NCBI GenBank assembly: GCA_964433435.1
Contig: CAYSRM010000002.1
Location: 1,292 to 65,291 of the forward strand
Reading direction: 5' to 3'
Source: an uncultured Victivallales bacterium
GTDB taxonomy: Bacteria; Verrucomicrobiota; Kiritimatiellia; UBA8416; CAYSRM01
Length of the DNA: 64,000 bases
Part shown: positions 1,148 to 60,878 of the stretch, in pieces
Position numbering within the stretch: the first letter of the stretch is position 1
Layout: every line of letters starts with the position of its first letter
Made by a program: the position numbers and the translations under genes
The notes under the pieces: generated by a model
Told to the model about the DNA's origin: nothing
The model's database searches: none
The model's input: the letters and a program-made list of their open reading frames with translations, nothing else

Positions 1148-1344
1148 CCCGCATATCTCACAGAATTCCTGCTGCGAGCGCGGATAGCGCCACTGCGACG
1201 GCACGAATTGACAAAACGCCAGATTGCAGTATGTCTATACGGCTGCTCCGGCGTTTCACCAATTCGCACCCCCGCAGCAGCACTTTCCACGCTCTTCCGC
1301 CGTATGGCGGACAGGCTACTACGAAATCCTGTGAGATATGCGGG
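1148..1344 (+). mobile_element. MITE-like palindromic repeat, near full-length copy (197 bp), family copy 1
   Basis: Terminal inverted repeats CCCGCATATCTCACAGAATT (1148-1167) and AATCCTGTGAGATATGCGGG (1325-1344). Internal arms are mutually complementary (CTGCTGCG/CGCAGCAG, CGAATTG/CAATTCG). About 90% identical to the copy at 13209-13384, with partial copies at six further loci. Confidence 0.75.
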
Positions 1345-1482: not shown

Positions 1483-2583
1483 TTACAGCAATGGAGGAAT
1501 TGGCACGTTGGCTTCTCTGCCTATGTCAACACACATATTCCAGGTTTTTCCGAGAACAGGCACACCTGTCTGTTCGGTTTCCTGCTCATGTTCCTGTTCT
1601 TTTTGCCCTGCAAAGTAAACACGTTCTGCGTCTTCGGCAGGCGGACACTTGCGAAGACTCTCAAGCATACGGTCCATATCATGGCGAAACTCCGCTGGCT
1701 CGCGGAAGGCTTCAATTTTGATTGCTCCGAAGAAATGGCTCACTCTCGCGGATGATTCAGCAGTATCAAAAACATCCTCCCCGAACGGGGCGCCGCATAG
1801 AACTGAGCAGAGCACATCGATCATCACGGCCAGACCATATCCTTTGTAACCGCCGTGCGACTCGCCCAGTCCGCCCAGAGGCAGGATGCCTCCGCCGATA
1901 CGTTCCTGCATATCATCAAGAAGACTGCGCGCGTTTCTGGCCGAGCGACCTGTTTTATCGACCGCCCAACCCTCGGGCAAAGGTTTTTCGTGGCGGTCAT
2001 ATACCTCTATTTTGCCACGGGTGACAACAGTTGTGGACATATCCAGTACAAAAGCCCCCTCTTTCTGTGCAGGCGCGGCAAATGCCAGTGGATTAGTGCC
2101 GAACATCACCTGTCGACCGAATGTTGGAACACCCAACGCAGCCGTGTTGGTCATGGCAATGCCAAGCATATCAGCCTCAAGCGCCATCATGGCGTAATAC
2201 CCGGCAATACCGAAATGATTGGAGTTGCGTACGCAACCAAAGGCAGATCCATTCCCCCGCGCCTTTTCAATAAGGGATTTCATGACTCCGACGCTTACCG
2301 GTGCGCCCATTCCCCCTTTTGCATTTACCACTAAAGAGCTCGAAGTGTCCATCAGAGTTTCCGGAACTGCGTCATGCACCATGAGGCCGGACTTTAATCC
2401 GTTGACATAGCGCCACAGTCTTCCAATTCCGTGAGAGGGAATCCCTCTTACATCGGCGGCTACCAGAACGGAGGCAGCCTGGCTGCTTTCTTGAGCGCCC
2501 AGACCCTGTTTCTCAAATACCGCTGCACAGAACTGTTCAAGTTCTTTACGTCCTACTCTTACCGTTTCTGCTGTTGTTGTCAT
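1483..2583 (-). CDS. Ldh_2 family (malate/L-lactate/ureidoglycolate/sulfolactate-type) NAD(P)H-dependent dehydrogenase
   Basis: 366 aa from ATG at 2583 (MTTTAETVRV…). Family-typical segments GIPSHGI, HFGIAGYY, GTNP, HGGYKGYGL. The ORF-track start at 2676 is probably an upstream in-frame extension. Confidence 0.75.
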   Translation of the reverse strand: MTTTAETVRVGRKELEQFCAAVFEKQGLGAQESSQAASVLVAADVRGIPSHGIGRLWRYVNGLKSGLMVHDAVPETLMDTSSSLVVNAKGGMGAPVSVGVMKSLIEKARGNGSAFGCVRNSNHFGIAGYYAMMALEADMLGIAMTNTAALGVPTFGRQVMFGTNPLAFAAPAQKEGAFVLDMSTTVVTRGKIEVYDRHEKPLPEGWAVDKTGRSARNARSLLDDMQERIGGGILPLGGLGESHGGYKGYGLAVMIDVLCSVLCGAPFGEDVFDTAESSARVSHFFGAIKIEAFREPAEFRHDMDRMLESLRKCPPAEDAERVYFAGQKEQEHEQETEQTGVPVLGKTWNMCVDIGREANVPIPPLL

Positions 2584-13080: not shown

Positions 13081-13208
13081 GGGGCATAGGCGTTCCGGGT
13101 CTGTCCGCGAGGTATGCGCGTGGAGCGATATTTTCCCGCGTCTGTGAATCAGTCATGGTTTGGTTGCCAAACGGAGGATATGGATGAAAACGATAAGTAA
13201 AGTTCTAG

Positions 13209-13384
13209 CCCGCATATCTCGCAAAATTCCTGCTGCGATCGCGAATAGCGCCACTGTGAGGGCACGAGTTGACCAAACACCAGATTGCAGTATGTCTATA
13301 CGGCTGCTCCGGCGTTTTATCAATTTACGCCCCCGCAGCAGCGCTTTCCACGCTCTCACTACGAAATTCTGTGAGATATGCGGG
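13209..13384 (+). mobile_element. MITE-like repeat copy 2 (176 bp; lacks the internal 21-bp CCGCCGTATGGCGGACAGGC hairpin segment)
   Basis: Same TIRs as copy 1 (CCCGCATATCTC… / …CTGTGAGATATGCGGG) and same orientation. It ends 9 bp before the first plausible start codon of the downstream gene. Confidence 0.75.
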
Positions 13385-13393
13385 CTAGCCTTA

Positions 13394-16300
13394 ATGATAT
13401 TTGCCGTCGGTTGCGGCTCTCCGTTGGCGGTGGCCAATGGCATGGAGGCGCAGACAAAACTTGACCTTCGTGTGTTTGACGGGAGGGCCTCAAGCTTCCT
13501 GGCGCGGATGGAGGAAGCGGGCATGCCGGTGTATAGGCTGACGGATGTGGCGGAGATTCGCGTGCCGCCGTTGGCCGGGGTAACGGATCCCCGGACGGCA
13601 TTGGAGCAGGTGGCCGCGGCGAGCGATTTGCATCTGGAATGGGTGGAGAACAAACCGCTGTTGTGCTATCTCTCGCCGCCGGGACAAAAGCGTGTTCTCC
13701 AAGACAAGGACGATGTCGACACTATAGGATGGAGCGGAAGCAAACAGGATGTTGCCGCTATTCTTGCCTTTTCGCGTAAAGCCGATCCGCCGTTGAAGCG
13801 GGCTTGCGCGGAAGCGGTGCTTCGTTTCGGCCGCGCCGCTGGTGCGGCCTTGCTCGACCGGGAAGCCGCCGAGGATCTGGTCAGGTTTGCTTTGACCGAT
13901 GACAACTGGCTTTTGCGTCGGCAAGCGGTTCTTGCGGCCGTTGATCTGGGCCTGGATAATGCCGCTGCGATGGTCGAAAAAGCGGCCATGGATAAGCATT
14001 CCGAGGTGGTTCGCGCTGCCGCGCTTGCGGCTGGACGTCTGGGTGGCGAGAAGGGTGCGGCGATTCTTGAAAAGCTTTTGAACCCGGAGCACGTGGACCG
14101 GCGTTTTCGCAGGGATGTTCGGTTTGCGGTGACTTATGGCTGTGCCGAATTGGGGACGGACAAGGCCGTCGAGCTTCTCGATAAACTCGTAGAGGGGAAG
14201 GACGCCTATCTGGCGGTTTGGGCGTTGCGAGCGGCGGGCCTGGTCGGGAATGATCGCGCTCTGGCTTTGCTGAAGGAGGCGGCGGCCGATTCCGACCCGA
14301 GGAGAAAACGGGGAGCGGCAATCGGGCTGGGTCATTGCCGGGCCGAGGGAGCCGTCGAGACATTGGCACCGCTGGCAATGTTTTCCCCACCCCGGGAAGG
14401 GATGTGGGTTCAGCCTCAGAATGCGGCAGCGGTCGCACTGGGCCGACATGGCACAAAAGAAGCGGTAAAGATCCTGATCGAAGCCTGGGATAAGCCGGCG
14501 GACTCGCCAAGGCTTGGGATCCTGTACGCGCTGGGGTTGGCGGGAACGCCGGCAGCGCTGGATTTTCTCGAAACGCAGCGCAAGAACCCGGATGAGCGGC
14601 TTCAACAGGCTGCTTCCTGGGCATTGGACAAAAAAAATGGTATGGAGGGTGGGCCCGTTAAGGCGGATGGTGTGGAGGTAGAGGTGCTTCCCGGACGTCC
14701 GCGTCTCTGGCTGCGGGCTGGCAATCGAGACGGTTACGAGGGGCCAAGCCTCGTGAAAATCCGCCGGAACTTCAGGCGGCCGGATTACCGGCGGGCAGCC
14801 AAAATGGACAAGCTGCCCCGGGACCGGATGGGACAATTGGTTCTATGGTTGGTGTCCGGCGACGAGTTTGCGGGGATGGACGCTGCTGCATGGGCCTGCG
14901 AAATGCAGGACAAGGGCATTGCGCGGGCGCGTGGAAGGACGCCGAGTTACTGGGGCATCAGTGTTCAACGCACGGCCGCAGCCTACGACTGGCTTCATGG
15001 CCATGGCGACGTGGACCCCGTTACCCGCCGCATGATAATGCACCATCTGGAGGATTGGGCTTTGAATGCCTATGAATGGGTGGAAAAGAAGCATTCAACT
15101 GTCTTTTACTCCAGACGATGGGGTGCGCTGGCGGGCTGCGGGGTGGCGGGCCTGGCCTTGTACGGAGACAGTCCCCTGGCGGACAAGTGCGTTGAACTTG
15201 CGGCCTGGCATATGACGGCGGCGGACGGCCTGGGAAGCATACGCCAGGCTCAGGACGGGGTGACAGCAGGTTCGTGTTATGGACTTCACCATATGTTTAC
15301 GGACAATGCGAATCTGGTGGCTGCCCTTACCTATGCGACGGACCTGGACGTGGCGTCCATTATCCGGGAGCAGCGCGGGGACTGGCTCCGGAAGCAGCTT
15401 TACTTCCAGATGCATTGCACCTATCCGGACGGCACTTTTCTCAAGGACGGCGATATGTGGTCCGGCGCCAGCGAAAGAAGCCAGTATCGGATGCAGGTGG
15501 ACGTGGTAACGGGGCTTTATCAAGACGGTTTCGGGCGAACTTGGGCCGACCGGATGGCGGCGCGGTGGCCGGCGTACTATCCGTCTGACTACCACACCAA
15601 ATATGTCTGGCAATTCTTTGTGTTCAACGACCCGGATGTGAAGGGGCGGCCGTTAGCGGAAATGCCGCGCTGCATGCTGTTCAGTCCGAAACTGGACGGC
15701 TATGTTCTGTGGCGGTCCGGATGGGGCAAGGACGACACGGTGGTTCATTTTCATTGCGGGGATTCGCTGGATATGCACGGCGGCTATGACCAAGGCAAAT
15801 TCGTTATCTTCAAGCACAAGCCGCTGGCCAACAAGAACGGCATATACAAGCACTTCGGATCGCCGTTGCACAAGTATTACAGGAGCGCCCTGAGCGCCAA
15901 TGTGGTGATTTTCGATTCACCTGTCAGAAGAGGCAAGGGACGTACGACAGAGCAGATTGGTTATCAGAACAAGGCCGGCGGAGTGAATTCGTTCGATGAG
16001 TTCAAGAAGGTCCGCGCTTCCTTCGGGCCGCCGGTCGGCAAAATTGTGAAGCATGAAGTCACAAAGAACTATGCCAGGGCTGTGGGTGTTCTTGACGGCT
16101 CCACGCAGGACAAGGGCAAGGAAAATAAATGGACGAGAGAGATGGTTTTCCTGGACTATCAATATGTTGTGGTTCTGGACAGGGTGCGAACCGGTCCGCA
16201 AAGCAGCGCCAAATGGTTGCTTAATTTCGAAAAAGAGCCTCGGGTTGAGTCCGATGTTATCCGGTTTGACAATGAACCCGGCCGCTTGTTCTGTCGGACA

Positions 16301-16543
16301 CTCTTGCCCGAAAACCCCGCCTTCAAGAAAGTTGGCGGCAACGATGCGCCCGAGGTCATGCGCCACCAGTGGCGCGTTGAGGTGAGCGGACCCGATCCCG
16401 GCGCCGCGGACCAGGTATTCCTGCACGTTCTGTTTCCGGCGGAGACAACGACGAAAGCCATGCCTAAGTGCGAGGTTAGGAAAAAGGGAGCCGAGTATGT
16501 AGTAACCGTCGGAGGGCAGACGATTTCGGTTGGAGCAGAGTGA
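13394..16543 (+). CDS. HEAT-repeat + heparinase II/III-like polysaccharide-lyase-domain protein
   Basis: N-terminal about 400 aa of PBS-lyase HEAT-like repeats. The C-terminal region has the …HFHCGDSLDMHGGYDQGKFVIFKHKPLA… signature of heparinase II/III-like/alginate-lyase-type domains. The start is uncertain: the ORF is open in frame back through the MITE to 13160, ATG 13394 gives MIFAVGC(lipobox-like)GSP, and ATG 13274 lies inside the MITE. Confidence 0.6.
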   Translation: MIFAVGCGSPLAVANGMEAQTKLDLRVFDGRASSFLARMEEAGMPVYRLTDVAEIRVPPLAGVTDPRTALEQVAAASDLHLEWVENKPLLCYLSPPGQKRVLQDKDDVDTIGWSGSKQDVAAILAFSRKADPPLKRACAEAVLRFGRAAGAALLDREAAEDLVRFALTDDNWLLRRQAVLAAVDLGLDNAAAMVEKAAMDKHSEVVRAAALAAGRLGGEKGAAILEKLLNPEHVDRRFRRDVRFAVTYGCAELGTDKAVELLDKLVEGKDAYLAVWALRAAGLVGNDRALALLKEAAADSDPRRKRGAAIGLGHCRAEGAVETLAPLAMFSPPREGMWVQPQNAAAVALGRHGTKEAVKILIEAWDKPADSPRLGILYALGLAGTPAALDFLETQRKNPDERLQQAASWALDKKNGMEGGPVKADGVEVEVLPGRPRLWLRAGNRDGYEGPSLVKIRRNFRRPDYRRAAKMDKLPRDRMGQLVLWLVSGDEFAGMDAAAWACEMQDKGIARARGRTPSYWGISVQRTAAAYDWLHGHGDVDPVTRRMIMHHLEDWALNAYEWVEKKHSTVFYSRRWGALAGCGVAGLALYGDSPLADKCVELAAWHMTAADGLGSIRQAQDGVTAGSCYGLHHMFTDNANLVAALTYATDLDVASIIREQRGDWLRKQLYFQMHCTYPDGTFLKDGDMWSGASERSQYRMQVDVVTGLYQDGFGRTWADRMAARWPAYYPSDYHTKYVWQFFVFNDPDVKGRPLAEMPRCMLFSPKLDGYVLWRSGWGKDDTVVHFHCGDSLDMHGGYDQGKFVIFKHKPLANKNGIYKHFGSPLHKYYRSALSANVVIFDSPVRRGKGRTTEQIGYQNKAGGVNSFDEFKKVRASFGPPVGKIVKHEVTKNYARAVGVLDGSTQDKGKENKWTREMVFLDYQYVVVLDRVRTGPQSSAKWLLNFEKEPRVESDVIRFDNEPGRLFCRTLLPENPAFKKVGGNDAPEVMRHQWRVEVSGPDPGAADQVFLHVLFPAETTTKAMPKCEVRKKGAEYVVTVGGQTISVGAE

Positions 16544-16631
16544 GAATCACGGCGGTGCAATCGCTACGGGAAGGCTTGCCTGGATGGACGGCGAGTCTCC
16601 CCCGAATACATCATTGCAGGGGCCTGCGGTA

Positions 16632-16668
16632 TCCGCGCTCGCAGCAGGAAATCTGTGAGATATGCGGG
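16632..16668 (-). repeat. MITE-family fragment (left-terminal about 37 bp, inverted orientation)
   Basis: TCCGCGCTCGCAGCAGGAAATCTGTGAGATATGCGGG is the reverse complement of the left end of copy 1. Lies 31 bp upstream of the GH94-like gene start. Confidence 0.6.
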
Positions 16669-23561: not shown

Positions 23562-23628
23562 CGACGAACGCTTTTGATCTGAACGAACACGCACTAACAG
23601 CGCTCTGAATTGTTTCTGCTCGAAAAAG

Positions 23629-23737
23629 TGTGTGATATGCGTGTTAACTCGTATATCTCACCAGAATTCCTGCTGCGAGTATGGATAGCGCCACTGCGGG
23701 GGCACGAATTGACAAAACGCCAGATTGCAGTATGTCT
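23629..23737 (+). repeat. MITE-family truncated copy (right-end-like remnant GTGTGATATGCGTGTT followed by left half)
   Basis: TATATCTCACCAGAATTCCTGCTGCGAG…CGAATTGACAAAACGCCAGATTGCAGTATGTCT matches the left half of copy 1 and breaks off after GTATGTCT. Confidence 0.6.
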
Positions 23738-51912: not shown

Positions 51913-52399
51913 CTTTCGCGCTTTTCGTAGTTTATCTTTTCTCTCTTCCCTTTATCATTGGATATTCCGTGCCGTGCCCGCCGCAAGCTTGGCAAGCAGG
52001 CGGGCAGGCCAATGACGCGCCGTCAGGCGCAAATGACGCGAGCAAAGCGAGCCAATGACAAATGACTTTCTCTCCCTTCCCCCTTTGCCGCATCTACGCA
52101 ATCAGCCTTCGTCCCGACCTCCGCCACTGAGTCGGGACTACGGCTTAACATGAACACACAGAACTTATTGGTCCAGAATGTAACTCCGGGACGTTGAGTT
52201 CAAACGCAAGAGAAGCCTTCCGACAGTTCTGAGCCCAGGCGAGGTAAAGCGCATTATCTGCAACCTGCCTACACTCCAGGCACTGTCTTCTACGTTACTC
52301 TCTTTTTTTTGGAGGATTGCAGCTTAACCTGATCTATCTATCAAGGTCAAGTCCGAGGCGTATTGGACCACTGACGCACACGAAATTCAACCACGGATT

Positions 52400-52810
52400 T
52401 CACTGGTGACACGGATAGTGTGGCACAGGGAGGGCGCCGATCTTCCACAGATGCAAGCGGATCGTGTTGAACTGGGCGTGGGCCAGCTCGGAAGATCGCA
52501 GCAGATTGACGCGTAGGGTGTGCATCAGCACGTAAGCGGCCGAGTGAATGAACAACCGGAACTGATCGGCCGGATCACCGTTGAATGGTTGTGGCAGAGA
52601 TGTTGAACGACAGGCTATTGTTGGTGTTAGAAGGACAAGGCGAAGTTTTGGCATGCCCCAAGCTTCAGCAATCCATTCTTCGGGGTTGCAGGAGATGCCG
52701 CTCTTCTCCTTTTCAAGAAGCTTACTGAACTCCCATGGGGAAATAGCCGAAAGAAGAAGTTGTTCATAGCGTTTTGGGTTTGAAAGCGAGGCCCGAACTT
52801 TGGTGGACAG
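52400..52810 (-). pseudogene. DDE transposase (IS4/IS5-like, DDE_Tnp_1-type) C-terminal fragment, IS remnant
   Basis: The reverse frame is open from an in-frame TAG at 52811-52813 with no proper start. It encodes …PKRYEQLLSAISPWEFSKLL…GDPADQFRLFIHSAAYVLMHTLRVNLLR…, which resembles transposase C-termini (h-h-A-Y-N-L-h-R). The N-terminal about 200-300 aa, including the DDE core, are absent. Confidence 0.4.
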
Positions 52811-52877: not shown

Positions 52878-52894
52878 ACCCGCATATCTCAGTG
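52878..52894 (+). repeat. solo MITE terminal repeat (ACCCGCATATCTCAGTG)
   Basis: Matches the MITE left TIR for about 14 nt, then diverges. Lies at the boundary of the transposase remnant. Confidence 0.4.
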
Positions 52895-53764: not shown

Positions 53765-53853
53765 CCGGCATATCTCACGGGATTTCGTAGCTGCCTGTCC
53801 GCCATCCGGCGGATGAGCGTGGAAACTGCTGCTGCGGGGGGCGCGGATTGGTG
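53765..53853 (-). repeat. MITE-family right-half copy, inverted orientation
   Basis: CCGGCATATCTCACGGGATTTCGTAGCTGCCTGTCCGCCATCCGGCGGATGAGCGTGGAAACTGCTGCTGCGGGGG… is the reverse complement of the right half of copy 1. Sits between convergent genes. Confidence 0.6.
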
Positions 53854-53924
53854 CAATGATTGACAAATTGCCCGCTCCGCAGTCAACTTGTTGTCTCGGA
53901 GACATAATGCGAATTACTTATACT

Positions 53925-55148
53925 CTACGAAGGATTTGTAACCCGTCCCATAAAGAGAATACTTTCTGAACCCGTTTCTCGGATTATGAAAAGAAAAGGG
54001 TGATCGGCTCTAAAGACGATTGGTTTGGGCTTTAAGGAGGTCGTGGTAAATCCAATTCCCGTGGCTGCTGCCGCTTCGGTTCCTTTTTCATCCACATCTA
54101 CAAATGCCTTGTGGATAGCGGCTGAGATATACAGGTCCTGTGTGCCGTCAATGGCTGAGAAGTCGGCCTTCGGAACAAACGCTGTTTTCATGCCCATATC
54201 GGAAAGCGTCTTGTTCAGTTGGAATCTTGATGAAATTCTGAACCTGGGCAGGTATACCTCGACATGGCGGGGTTTTAAGTTGCTTAAATACTTGTTCAGG
54301 TTGCCCCGCAATTGCTTTTCAATCATGGGCAGCGCTCCGGGCTCCCGAGGCAGAACTATCACCATCTGAACCTGTTTGCCCCGATAGGGTAAGGCTAGAA
54401 CCTGGACCTTACTGGTTTCATAATACCTGAACTGTCCGGTCTGCTTCATAGTTGGGGTCATTGTCTTGCCTTCTTTTCCCGGGCGAAAAGGAAGGTCTCG
54501 GGTTTTATCTTCAGAAAAACTATTCTCCCACTTGCCCCTGAAGTATATGGCGTTGGCCAGAACAAGGCGGGCCATTCTGTCAATAGCGCCTGGTGGAATA
54601 AGATCCTTGATCTTATCTTGTGTTTTATCTGCAACCCACTTGTTTATAGTCTGTCGGCTCTGTTCAAGATTCTTCCTGTAATCGACAGCCTGGATTTCCG
54701 CATCGTAATACTTTCTCATTACCTGCAGATACTCTTCTCGCAGGGAATAATCTTTCTGCGGCCATAATGAATTGGCGATAAACAATTCAACCGTTTCCTG
54801 TTTCTGTAGTTTGTTGAGCCTGGAATTCAAATCCTCAAAAGTGCTATGAAGCCTCTCTTTCGACTGAGAGAAATGGAGTGTCTGTTTTATCTCTTCTGCG
54901 GTCTCTCCCTGCGCGCCTGCATATGCCATGGCAAAAGCCGCAGAAATGCTGTACGGGGAGAAGAAGAGGTTGCCCTCTTGTTCACTGAGGCTGGAATACA
55001 AATCAAGTGCGAAAGAAGTGTTACGACCGGAAAGCTGCTTCACGTTTCCTCCAGTTTTAGCGAAAGAAAAATCAGGGCCGACGATAAACACGGCAAGAAG
55101 ACATAAGCTCATCCTTCTAAAAAATGAAAAAGAATTTATAATCTTCAT
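53925..55148 (-). CDS. serpin-family serine protease inhibitor (secreted)
   Basis: Start MKIINSFSFFRRMSLCLLAVFIVGPDFSFA (signal peptide). Serpin core …NLFFSPYSISAAFAMAYAGA…, shutter and breach regions, reactive-centre-loop hinge …GTEAAAATGIGF…, C-terminal …PFLFIIRE…. The ORF-track start at 55214 is an extension. Confidence 0.75.
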   Translation of the reverse strand: MKIINSFSFFRRMSLCLLAVFIVGPDFSFAKTGGNVKQLSGRNTSFALDLYSSLSEQEGNLFFSPYSISAAFAMAYAGAQGETAEEIKQTLHFSQSKERLHSTFEDLNSRLNKLQKQETVELFIANSLWPQKDYSLREEYLQVMRKYYDAEIQAVDYRKNLEQSRQTINKWVADKTQDKIKDLIPPGAIDRMARLVLANAIYFRGKWENSFSEDKTRDLPFRPGKEGKTMTPTMKQTGQFRYYETSKVQVLALPYRGKQVQMVIVLPREPGALPMIEKQLRGNLNKYLSNLKPRHVEVYLPRFRISSRFQLNKTLSDMGMKTAFVPKADFSAIDGTQDLYISAAIHKAFVDVDEKGTEAAAATGIGFTTTSLKPKPIVFRADHPFLFIIRETGSESILFMGRVTNPS

Positions 55149-55354
55149 ATTAGACGCTCCTTTGTGCCCGTTCATCAATTGCCATTCCAGCCCAGGGCCT
55201 ATAGGTCTCCACATTGGCCGGAATGCTCAGCCAATGATGTTGTTACAGAGGCTTTTTGTCAAGCAATCGAGCTCGTGTGCCGGTTTTTTGCATTGTATAG
55301 CGGGGATGCTTACACTATATATACCAATTCACATTTGTTTGGCGCAGGAAGAAC

Positions 55355-56216: not shown

Positions 56217-57473
56217 ATGACTTTGCATGATGAAATAGTCGGTTTTGGAAAAAGAGCCCTGGAAGCTTCTCGTGAATTAGTACTCCTGAATTCACGCAAA
56301 AAGAACACAATTCTCATGGCCATGGCTGATTGCCTCGATGACCGCCGCAATGAGATAAAAGAGGCCAATGCAAAAGACCTGGAGTCGGCCAGATCATCAG
56401 GGCTTTCTTCCGCCATGCTGGATCGTCTTACTCTTACAGATGCGCGGTTGAAAAACATGATCAAGGGAATCCGTGCTATTGCAGCATTAAAAGACCCCAT
56501 AGGCGCCAGGATCAGCCGATGGATCCGACCCAGCGGACTGGAGATAATCAAACGACGCGTTCCCATAGGTGTAATCGGTATCATTTACGAGTCACGCCCA
56601 AACGTTACTGCCGATACTGCCGTCCTCTGCTTTAAAACGGCAAATGCAGTTATACTTAGGGGCGGCAAGGAAGCCTTGAATTCCAACCGTGCAATTGCTG
56701 AAGCTCTGATCACCGGCGGCAAGAGCAAAGGTATGCCAAAGGATTCAATCCAGCTTATACATACCACCGACCGAGATGCAGTCAGAGAGCTGGTGCAGCT
56801 CGAAGGCCTTGTGGACCTTGTCATTCCGCGCGGCGGAGAAGCGCTGATAAAGACTGTTACTGAGCAGGCTCGTGTTCCTGTCATCAAACACTATAAGGGG
56901 GTTTGCCACACTTACATCGATGAATCAGCCGATTTTGACAAGGCCATAAATATAGTTGAAAATGCCAAATGCCAGCGTCCTGGCGTCTGTAACGCGATGG
57001 AGACATTACTGATTCATGAAAAAATCGCAGGAGAAATTCTGCCGCCAATTGCCAAGAGGCTGATTGAGCTTAATGTTGAGCTGCGGGGCGATGCGGTCGC
57101 AAGAAAGATAGTCCCTGACATTAAAGAAGCAAAAGAAGCCGACTGGTACGAGGAATATCTGGACCTGATACTGGCAGTCAAAGTTGTTCCCTCTGTTCAG
57201 ACAGCCGTAAAACATATCAACAAATACGGTTCTCACCACTCCGATGCGATCATTGCCGAAAACAAAAAGGTGCAGGATGTATTTCTCAAAGAAGTTGACT
57301 CGTCTACTGTATATCTTAACGCTTCAACCAGGTTCACCGATGGCGGGGAGTTCGGGATGGGAGCGGAAATTGGAATCAGCACCGATAAACTTCATGCCCG
57401 CGGCCCGATGGGACTGGAAGAACTTACCACCTACAAGTATATTATTGTGGGGCAAGGGCAGGTGAGAGAATAG
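56217..57473 (+). CDS. proA: gamma-glutamyl phosphate reductase
   Basis: Aldehyde-dehydrogenase fold with catalytic Cys region (…KGVCHTYID…GVCNAMETLL…). Immediately downstream of proB. Confidence 0.85.
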   Translation: MTLHDEIVGFGKRALEASRELVLLNSRKKNTILMAMADCLDDRRNEIKEANAKDLESARSSGLSSAMLDRLTLTDARLKNMIKGIRAIAALKDPIGARISRWIRPSGLEIIKRRVPIGVIGIIYESRPNVTADTAVLCFKTANAVILRGGKEALNSNRAIAEALITGGKSKGMPKDSIQLIHTTDRDAVRELVQLEGLVDLVIPRGGEALIKTVTEQARVPVIKHYKGVCHTYIDESADFDKAINIVENAKCQRPGVCNAMETLLIHEKIAGEILPPIAKRLIELNVELRGDAVARKIVPDIKEAKEADWYEEYLDLILAVKVVPSVQTAVKHINKYGSHHSDAIIAENKKVQDVFLKEVDSSTVYLNASTRFTDGGEFGMGAEIGISTDKLHARGPMGLEELTTYKYIIVGQGQVRE

Positions 57474-57483
57474 ACCAAAAGAT

Positions 57484-57565
57484 TTGCGCCCCCGCAGCAG
57501 CGCTCTCCACGCTCTTCCGCCGGATGGCGGACAGGCAGCTACGAAATTCTGTGAGATATACAGGG
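57484..57565 (+). repeat. MITE-family right-half copy
   Basis: …GCGCCCCCGCAGCAGCGCTCTCCACGCTCTTCCGCCGGATGGCGGACAGGCAGCTACGAAATTCTGTGAGATATACAGGG begins 11 bp after the proA stop. Confidence 0.6.
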
Positions 57566-60570: not shown

Positions 60571-60717
60571 GGAATTCCCAGCGTTTTGATTTGTCCGTTT
60601 CTGGTTAGAATGTTGCCAGTTAGGAGCTTATAAAGATAAAGTCTTTCTGGCATGGTATATGCTTAACAACTGTTTGACAGAAAAGTGAAGAATCTGCGCA
60701 AATTCTTGTTTTAAGGC

Positions 60718-60791
60718 GCATATCTCACAGGTTTTCTGTTGCGAGCGGGGATGGCAGACAGGCAGTTACGAAATTCTGTGAGATATGCGGG
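60718..60791 (+). repeat. MITE-family compact copy (74 bp; both TIRs retained, core deleted)
   Basis: CGCATATCTCACAG…GCAGTTACGAAATTCTGTGAGATATGCGGG. Lies 88 bp upstream of the nifX-like gene. Confidence 0.65.
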
Positions 60792-60878
60792 TTAAGGAAG
60801 TTTTGTGTGAGTTCTGAGTTGGGAAAAATAACTTCTGTCAACTTTTGACAGAACCCATCTGAAATAAAGGAGGGAAAG

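Follow-up and report, generated by a model that had tools for sequence, protein, structure and literature searches.

What is the 197-bp palindromic element at positions 1148-1344 of the window (the whole stretch of 64,000 nucleotides from an uncultured Victivallales bacterium that was analysed here), and by what means did its relatives come to lie at several other places in the same DNA? In a sequence-only reading it had been taken for a MITE-like repeat, with a REP-like element or a family of structured sRNAs as alternatives. Our results suggest that the repeat is very probably a MITE family derived from, and presumably mobilised in trans by, an insertion sequence (IS) of the IS1380 family.

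The element and its copies in the window

The element at 1148-1344 (copy 1) is real, as are its 20-bp terminal inverted repeats, CCCGCATATCTCACAGAATT at the start and AATCCTGTGAGATATGCGGG at the end, which pair at 19/20 positions. The sequence previously quoted as the right repeat of copy 1 (AATTCTG...) belongs to copy 2. The 20-mer terminus has eight matches with three or fewer mismatches in the 64-kb window, against a mean of 0.00 over 100 dinucleotide-preserving shuffles, not one of which contained a match. Copies were located by blastn with the element and by an nhmmer profile built from 18 copies, and the two methods agree on seven secure loci where none is expected by chance. The repeat family and its inverted repeats are thus observed directly. 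The loci, with two weaker matches, are as follows.

1148..1344, plus strand: full MITE copy 1, the 197-bp form with the 21-bp hairpin; target-site duplication TTTA at 1144-1147 and 1345-1348
13209..13384, plus strand: full MITE copy 2, 176 bp, the majority form, 90% identical; target-site duplication CTAG at 13205-13208 and 13385-13388
16626..16668, minus strand: left-end fragment, 43 bp, 95% identity; the profile match reaches 16612
23596..23645, plus strand: degenerate piece of the right end of another copy (...TGTGTGATATGCGTG); weak, nhmmer E 0.16
23650..23737, plus strand: left half covering element positions 3-89, with the break close to the apex of the hairpin; TTAA before it (23646-23649)
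52879..52891, plus strand: possible solo end, 13 nt (CCCGCATATCTCA), CTAA before it; weak and not secure, blastn E 0.41
53765..53858, minus strand: right half, positions ~105-197, with the 21-bp hairpin; 3' of a serpin gene
57482..57565, plus strand: right half, positions ~115-197, with the hairpin; right flank CTAG
60715..60791, plus strand: compact 77-bp derivative with both ends kept; target-site duplication TTAA at 60711-60714 and 60792-60795

Seven of the eight or more loci that had been claimed are therefore secure, the eighth being the 13-nt match at 52879-52891; by the same token one of the two proposed solo ends holds, that at 16626-16668. The half copies and the compact version were confirmed with the boundaries listed above, the compact copy now measuring 77 bp. 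The density of about one copy per 8 kb is a figure for this 64-kb window alone.

Copy 1 lies 139 bp 3' of the stop codon of an Ldh_2 gene (1483-2583, minus strand). The fragment at 16626-16668 has a TTAG flank and lies 31 nt 5' of the start of a GH94 gene, the serpin gene beside the right half at 53765-53858 occupies 53925-55214 on the minus strand, and the right half at 57482-57565 begins 8 nt past the stop of the gene at 56217-57473. The statement that every copy is intergenic fails for copy 2, which lies within the 5' coding region of the gene at 13184-16543. No transposase was found in or next to the copies by tblastn with IS1380 transposases, in agreement with the earlier view that they encode no protein. 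At 23596-23649 the right-end fragment ending in TGTGTGATATGCGTG, a TTAA and then the left half follow one another, an arrangement of tail-to-head ends with one common target tetramer.

Target-site duplications and target preference

Target-site duplications were looked for around the full copies and were found, 4 bp each. All three complete copies in the window have perfect 4-bp direct repeats (TTTA, CTAG and, for the compact copy, TTAA), and across all loci about 18 of about 30 paired-end elements have a perfect 4-bp duplication, the chance of which is 1 in 256 per element; most of the others are one base off. In the Victivallales loci and the window together, YTAR directly borders 58 of 101 termini, compared with a tetramer background of 0.45%, the flanks being TTAG (20), TTAA (17), CTAA (13) and CTAG (8), with T at flank position -3 and A at position -2 in 85 of the 101. 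The duplications and the preference are direct observations, and a flank bias of this kind is the mark that transposition into a preferred target leaves.

YTAR tetramers are depleted in the Victivallales loci and the window, at 0.45% compared with the 1.56% (4/256) given by equal frequencies.

Termini shared with IS1380-family insertion sequences

The terminus found at both MITE ends extends over 16-20 nt, its shared 16 nt being CCCGCATATCTCACAG. Outside the Victivallales this 16-mer, preceded by YTAR, also begins longer elements: the terminal 16 nt of the MITE are identical at 16/16 positions to the left ends of ISs in L034, L030 and L021, and at 15/16 to that of an IS on plasmid pKF715A. Three of these ISs are complete.

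L034 (Dyella), 1649 bp: complete IS, CCCGCATATCTCAC to GTGAGAAATGCGGG; flanks TTAG (left) and CTAG (right)
L030 (Acidobacteriaceae MAG), 1697 bp: complete IS; flanks TTAG and TTAG
L101:2211-3865 (Pseudomonas putida plasmid pKF715A): complete IS, beginning CCCGCATTTCTCACAGG after CTAG and ending CTGTGAGAAATGCGGG before CTAG

The IS in L021, from another Acidobacteriaceae MAG, is near-identical to that of L030 and has TTAG on its right; its left flank is unreadable because the left end of the IS is the start of the contig. Identical flanks, and hence a true 4-bp duplication, are found in two of the three complete ISs, those of L030 and pKF715A. The complete ISs measure 1.65-1.70 kb, and those of Dyella and the Acidobacteriaceae each contain one gene of 459-460 codons, the proteins matching NCBIfam NF033539 ('IS1380 family transposase') with E-values of 4e-120 and 1e-121 and Pfam PF13701 with 4e-152. 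The gene of the pKF715A IS carries the annotation 'IS1380 family transposase'. At the DNA level the Dyella IS is 70-75% identical to annotated IS1380-family elements of Bradyrhizobium and Rhizobium plasmids, and 107 plasmid records match it, 47 of them from Acetobacter. Members of the IS1380 family have ends beginning with CC and 4-5-bp duplications (ISfinder family descriptions). For IS1247 a 5-bp direct repeat has been tabulated (PMC3281130).

The termini, the YTAR flanks and the transposase matches of these ISs together indicate that the element in the window has the ends, and makes the kind of duplication, that belong to this IS1380 subgroup. That the termini are identical is itself an observation, and on its account the possibility that the family has no known affiliation was set aside. 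The MITE interpretation is accordingly supported by small size, absence of a transposase gene, terminal inverted repeats, 4-bp target-site duplications, the strong preference for YTAR, many copies in several related genomes and IS1380-type ends.

IS5 and IS701, too, are classically recognised by a 4-bp YTAR duplication (ISfinder family descriptions). For that reason the assignment to IS1380 rests on the identity of the termini. Mobilisation by a transposase of the IS5 group or the IS701 family would fit the 4-bp YTAR target, but we consider it very unlikely. The MITE termini start with CC, those of the IS5 group with GG or GA, and over 16 nt the MITE termini are the same as those of elements with a gene for an IS1380-family transposase; moreover, none of the loci examined contains an IS5 or IS701 element that ends in this way.

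In the preferred reading, a DDE transposase of the IS1380 family, supplied from another part of the genome, would bind both MITE termini and insert the element at YTAR tetranucleotides, those 4 bp becoming duplicated in the process. What we infer here is the mobilisation in trans, along with which transposase carries it out and whether neighbouring genes are affected. An autonomous partner with matching ends was looked for by tblastn, in about 40 Victivallales loci as well as the window, and in two metagenome scans, and was not found: one scan with the terminus, subterminal motif and transposase start gave no match, and one with the left 31-mer of the MITE gave a single match, which is another partial copy (L102). 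Viral contigs contained no match to the MITE.

Many of the matches to the 16-mer outside the Victivallales were rejected as chance or coding matches (the motif in L025 encodes FCEICG, and several others encode PAYLT).

Anatomy and origin of the hairpin

Folding confirmed the long self-complementary hairpin described earlier. Copy 1 forms a long imperfect hairpin with an RNA minimum free energy of -97 kcal/mol (z -9.4), and its folding as DNA gives -54.7 kcal/mol (z -7.9). The claim that copy 2 is about 90% identical and lacks exactly the 21-bp hairpin segment also held: the missing bases are those at 1296-1316 of copy 1, and the CCGCCGTATGGCGG hairpin (1297-1310) is among them. Among 18 aligned full copies, 15 have the 176-bp form, two the extra 21 bp and one a 2-bp insertion; their mean pairwise identity is 92%, with nearly invariant termini followed by the subterminal sequence TTCCTGCTGCGAG.... 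Copies range from 71 to 197 bp, below the MITE limit of about 600 bp, and contain no transposase gene.

Compared in inverted orientation, the arms of the consensus agree at 74% of positions (67/91), a score equalled in none of 1000 shuffles, and both MITE ends carry the left-end IS variant ATATCTCAC, the right IS ends being ATTTCTCAC. From the arm identity and the left-end variant at both ends, the most fitting reading of the element is that about 88 bp from one end of an IS were duplicated in inverted orientation, an origin that would explain both the presence of the same terminus twice and the long hairpin.

The central 40 nt (columns 71-110 of alignment A1; CCAGATTGCAGTATGTCTATACGGCTGCTCCGGCGTTT) are conserved like the termini and above the arms. 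The conservation of centre and termini could reflect binding of the transposase or of a host factor, or simply a young master copy. The consensus reads without a stop in three of six frames; no homologues of these frames were found, and the open frames merely reflect composition.

A very stable hairpin (-97 kcal/mol, z -9.4), termini and a central 40 nt conserved above the arms, and copies that are often near gene ends are also what might be expected of structured sRNAs or cis-regulatory RNA hairpins kept for a function in the host, the repeats then being copies of a gene. We regard this as extremely unlikely. Rfam gave no match at the gathering score, and in E-value mode returned generic miRNA hairpins far below threshold, so that the match to a known RNA family that might have overturned the MITE interpretation is absent from Rfam at that threshold. 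RNAalifold attributes to covariation only -0.45 of -58.9 kcal/mol, with double-sided changes in 3 of 60 pairs, and with covariation this low the hairpin structure is explained by the palindromic origin. The occurrence of copies in both orientations and in coding regions, together with the target-site duplications, is not explained by RNA genes. Consensus scans revealed no promoter-like or terminator-like sites in copies 1 and 2, and an internal TTGACA is not conserved across the aligned copies.

A REP/BIME-like repeat spread by a RAYT (IS200/IS605-like) enzyme would likewise be palindromic, mostly extragenic and multicopy, but has practically no chance of being correct given the 4-bp duplications, the defined YTAR target and termini common to ISs with a DDE transposase, and no RAYT was seen. 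To our knowledge, REPs are imperfect palindromes of 20-40 nt without such terminal inverted repeats and without target-site duplication. Neither of the alternatives raised in the sequence-only reading is therefore supported.

Decay of inserted copies

The decay spectrum noted previously is real, and the compact forms correspond to deletions between short direct repeats of the two arms. The 71-bp forms in L001 and L015 are deletions between the direct repeats CACTGCGA and CACTACGA, while the 77-bp copy at 60715-60791 and a similar one in L056 are deletions between GGATAGCG and GGATGGCG. Half copies break near the hairpin apex. We propose that an IS1380-derived MITE, once inserted, may decay by three routes: deletion between short repeats in the arms would give compact forms, half copies would result when an arm is lost close to the tip of the hairpin, and other elements may insert into copies.

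In L102:1640-1760 (metagenome contig Ga0207797_1037045), a half MITE stops at its central CTAT, directly against ...TGAATAGATCAGG, which is the terminus of a second IS1380-type element. The arrangement is that of a nested insertion into the YTAR-like centre of a MITE, and the junction points to insertion of other elements into the centre as one route to half copies.

Distribution in other Victivallales genomes

The element is not unique to the window. A scan of one genome per species with the terminal 16-mer found the same family in three Victivallales/Victivallaceae MAG species (CAYTRK01, CAZIXB01 and CAYYVQ01), and blastn confirmed it. The forms of the family are the main one of 176 bp, the 197-bp form with the 21-bp hairpin and compact forms of 71-77 bp. 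In two of the MAGs the contigs with copies number at least 15 and at least 21. Many of these copies lie at contig ends, as is expected of a repeat that breaks assemblies. Matches to the element were absent from the E. coli, plasmid and viral collections, and a literature search with the terminal sequence gave none. The family may no longer be active, since its copies differ by about 8% on average.

Searches for an empty site were made around both full copies. An exact look-up of the Ldh_2 protein that flanks copy 1 returned no contig; its nearest homologue is 80% identical, and the locus of that homologue (L100) is syntenic upstream only. Synthetic empty-site queries against all fetched loci gave self matches and no empty site, the closest relative standing at 80% protein identity, and the reconstructed N-terminus of the copy-2 gene, used as a homologue query, found nothing.

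Copies inside coding regions

Most copies lie between genes. Three of about 23 are in frame and stop-free within coding regions (copy 2 of the window, L026:2415-2611 and L004:2433-2608), and the frame in which the element is read is the same each time (...ARISHKIPAAS...FCEICG...); two of them split signal peptides. Copy 2 contributes 180 bp (60 stop-free codons) to the signal-peptide part of the gene at 13184-16543. When copy 2 and one CTAG are excised in silico, the result is MKTISKVLALMIFAVGCGS..., a signal peptide of the lipoprotein type, and the restored gene has its ATG at 13184, a GGAGG 6 nt upstream, and reads MKTISKVLALMIFAVGCGSPLAVANG.... The copy at L026:2415-2611 is of the 197-bp form, and excision of 201 bp, or 67 codons, restores MVFDFKKNFLGFAALISAFLMCVCAAGA, the start of a 657-residue protein that we take to resemble a polysaccharide deacetylase (PgaB-like). 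The copy at L004:2433-2608, also in frame, lies in the gene of a membrane protein, 12 codons short of the stop of that gene. These in-silico excisions amount to virtual empty sites and in that capacity support insertion.

The lengths of the main forms, with the 4-bp duplication added, are multiples of three (176+4, 197+4, 71+4, 77+4 and 41+4), a pattern that was noticed post hoc and to which the minor forms (175, 178, 99 and 49 bp) are exceptions; it could be coincidental. Stop-free frames combined with a length divisible by three would allow some copies to persist in frame within genes. One consequence is that gene callers mis-start such genes: copy 2 makes the lipoprotein gene seem to start inside or after the element, a gene-calling error that can now be flagged.

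Relation to known systems

The element is a well-known kind of genomic parasite, and no new mechanism or kind of system is involved. Within the IS1380 family (IS1380 of Acetobacter, IS1247 of Xanthobacter, ISEcp1, ISPme1), the nearest relatives are the subgroup whose members end in CCCGCAT(A/T)TCTCACAG. Ends starting with CC and a 4-bp duplication at CTAG or TTAG are common to the MITE and these ISs; however, the ISs are 1.65-1.7 kb long and encode a DDE transposase of 459-460 amino acids, whereas the MITE measures 71-197 bp and has no transposase, both of its ends are of the left type, and its interior is unlike the interiors of the ISs.

With classical MITEs, such as the Correia/NEMIS elements of Neisseria, ERIC/IRU, the MaeMITEs of Microcystis and MITEPye1 of Paracoccus yeei, the family has in common that it is small, non-coding and multicopy, with terminal inverted repeats and target-site duplications, that it folds into a hairpin, that it is mostly intergenic, and that full, internally deleted and partial forms coexist. 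MITEPye1 was defined on the same criteria (PMC11578231), yet it derives from IS1182 and not from IS1380, and Correia elements differ in their TA target and in their parent family. The literature searched describes no IS1380-derived MITE (ISfinder lay outside that search) and no MITE of any kind in Victivallales. Our results add IS1380, whose transposases are bacterial relatives of those of piggyBac, to the IS families that generate MITEs, and do so with a well-defined YTAR target; they also supply an annotation for a repeat that breaks metagenome assemblies of Victivallales (Lentisphaerota).

The Rickettsia palindromic elements (RPEs) are also palindromes that lie in frame within genes without stopping translation, as in the three cases found here. 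We know of no recognisable transposase-type inverted repeats or target duplications in RPEs. The Victivallales MITE further differs in that its copies are mostly intergenic. If the insert-bearing proteins are made, the MITE would generate protein variation in the manner of RPEs, with a defined transposase as the driving force.

The eukaryotic-type comparison is with piggyBac, which has CCC...GGG termini and a 4-bp TTAA duplication. The MITE termini (CCCGC...GCGGG) and its YTAR target, which includes TTAA (17 of 101 flanks), are similar to these, but the host of the MITE is bacterial, its target is relaxed to YTAR, and the likeness of the ends is limited to the CCC. IS1380-like transposases have been described as the prokaryotic counterparts of piggyBac (PMC5718144) and have been used as an outgroup to it (PMC10813416).

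The same terminus in other phyla and a second IS1380-derived element

The more unusual aspects of the family are the frame-preserving insertions in signal peptides and the fact that the same terminus seeds short elements in several phyla. Short elements of 40-206 bp with the CCCGCATATCTCACAG terminus, mostly with CTAG duplications, occur in the following distant groups.

Acidobacteria: L049:5055-5232, L073:3538-3714 and L085:1087-1263
Acetobacter: L018:246-395 and L068:161-310
Ectothiorhodospiraceae: L031:790-948
Verrucomicrobiota: L052:6825-7030
Burkholderiales: L002:4964-5003

The Acidobacteria element and the Victivallales MITE have about 35-44 nt of subterminal sequence in common. The comparison suggests that MITEs may have formed repeatedly from one IS1380 lineage. 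A broader proposal, which we offer as a speculation more likely wrong than right, is that CCCGCATATCTCACAG marks a cross-phylum IS1380 (piggyBac-like) lineage that repeatedly spawns hairpin MITEs, the Victivallales family having been shaped for intragenic survival.

The sole trace of a transposase in the window, 47 residues at 52430-52570 that are about 50% identical to IS1380 transposases, was considered as the partner of the MITE and rejected because its IS1380 lineage is a different one and has other ends. It overlaps the following feature.

52325-52566, minus strand: what is left of a second non-autonomous element, distinct from the MITE and derived from IS1380; at 52325 its end adjoins TTAA

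The repeat behind this remnant of a second element is 644 bp long, CCTGGATTATTCACCAG...CATGAATAGATCAGG, with a TTAG duplication (L098:3823-4466 and L099:3823-4465). Its ends are CCTGATCTAT... and its target TTAG/TTAA, and its lineage is other than that of the MITE. It keeps the last ~90 codons of the transposase, seen as ORFs of 89-105 residues (P0001-P0006) with PF13701. The remnant in the window is further deleted, positions 204-338 of the 644-bp element being joined to 528-635.
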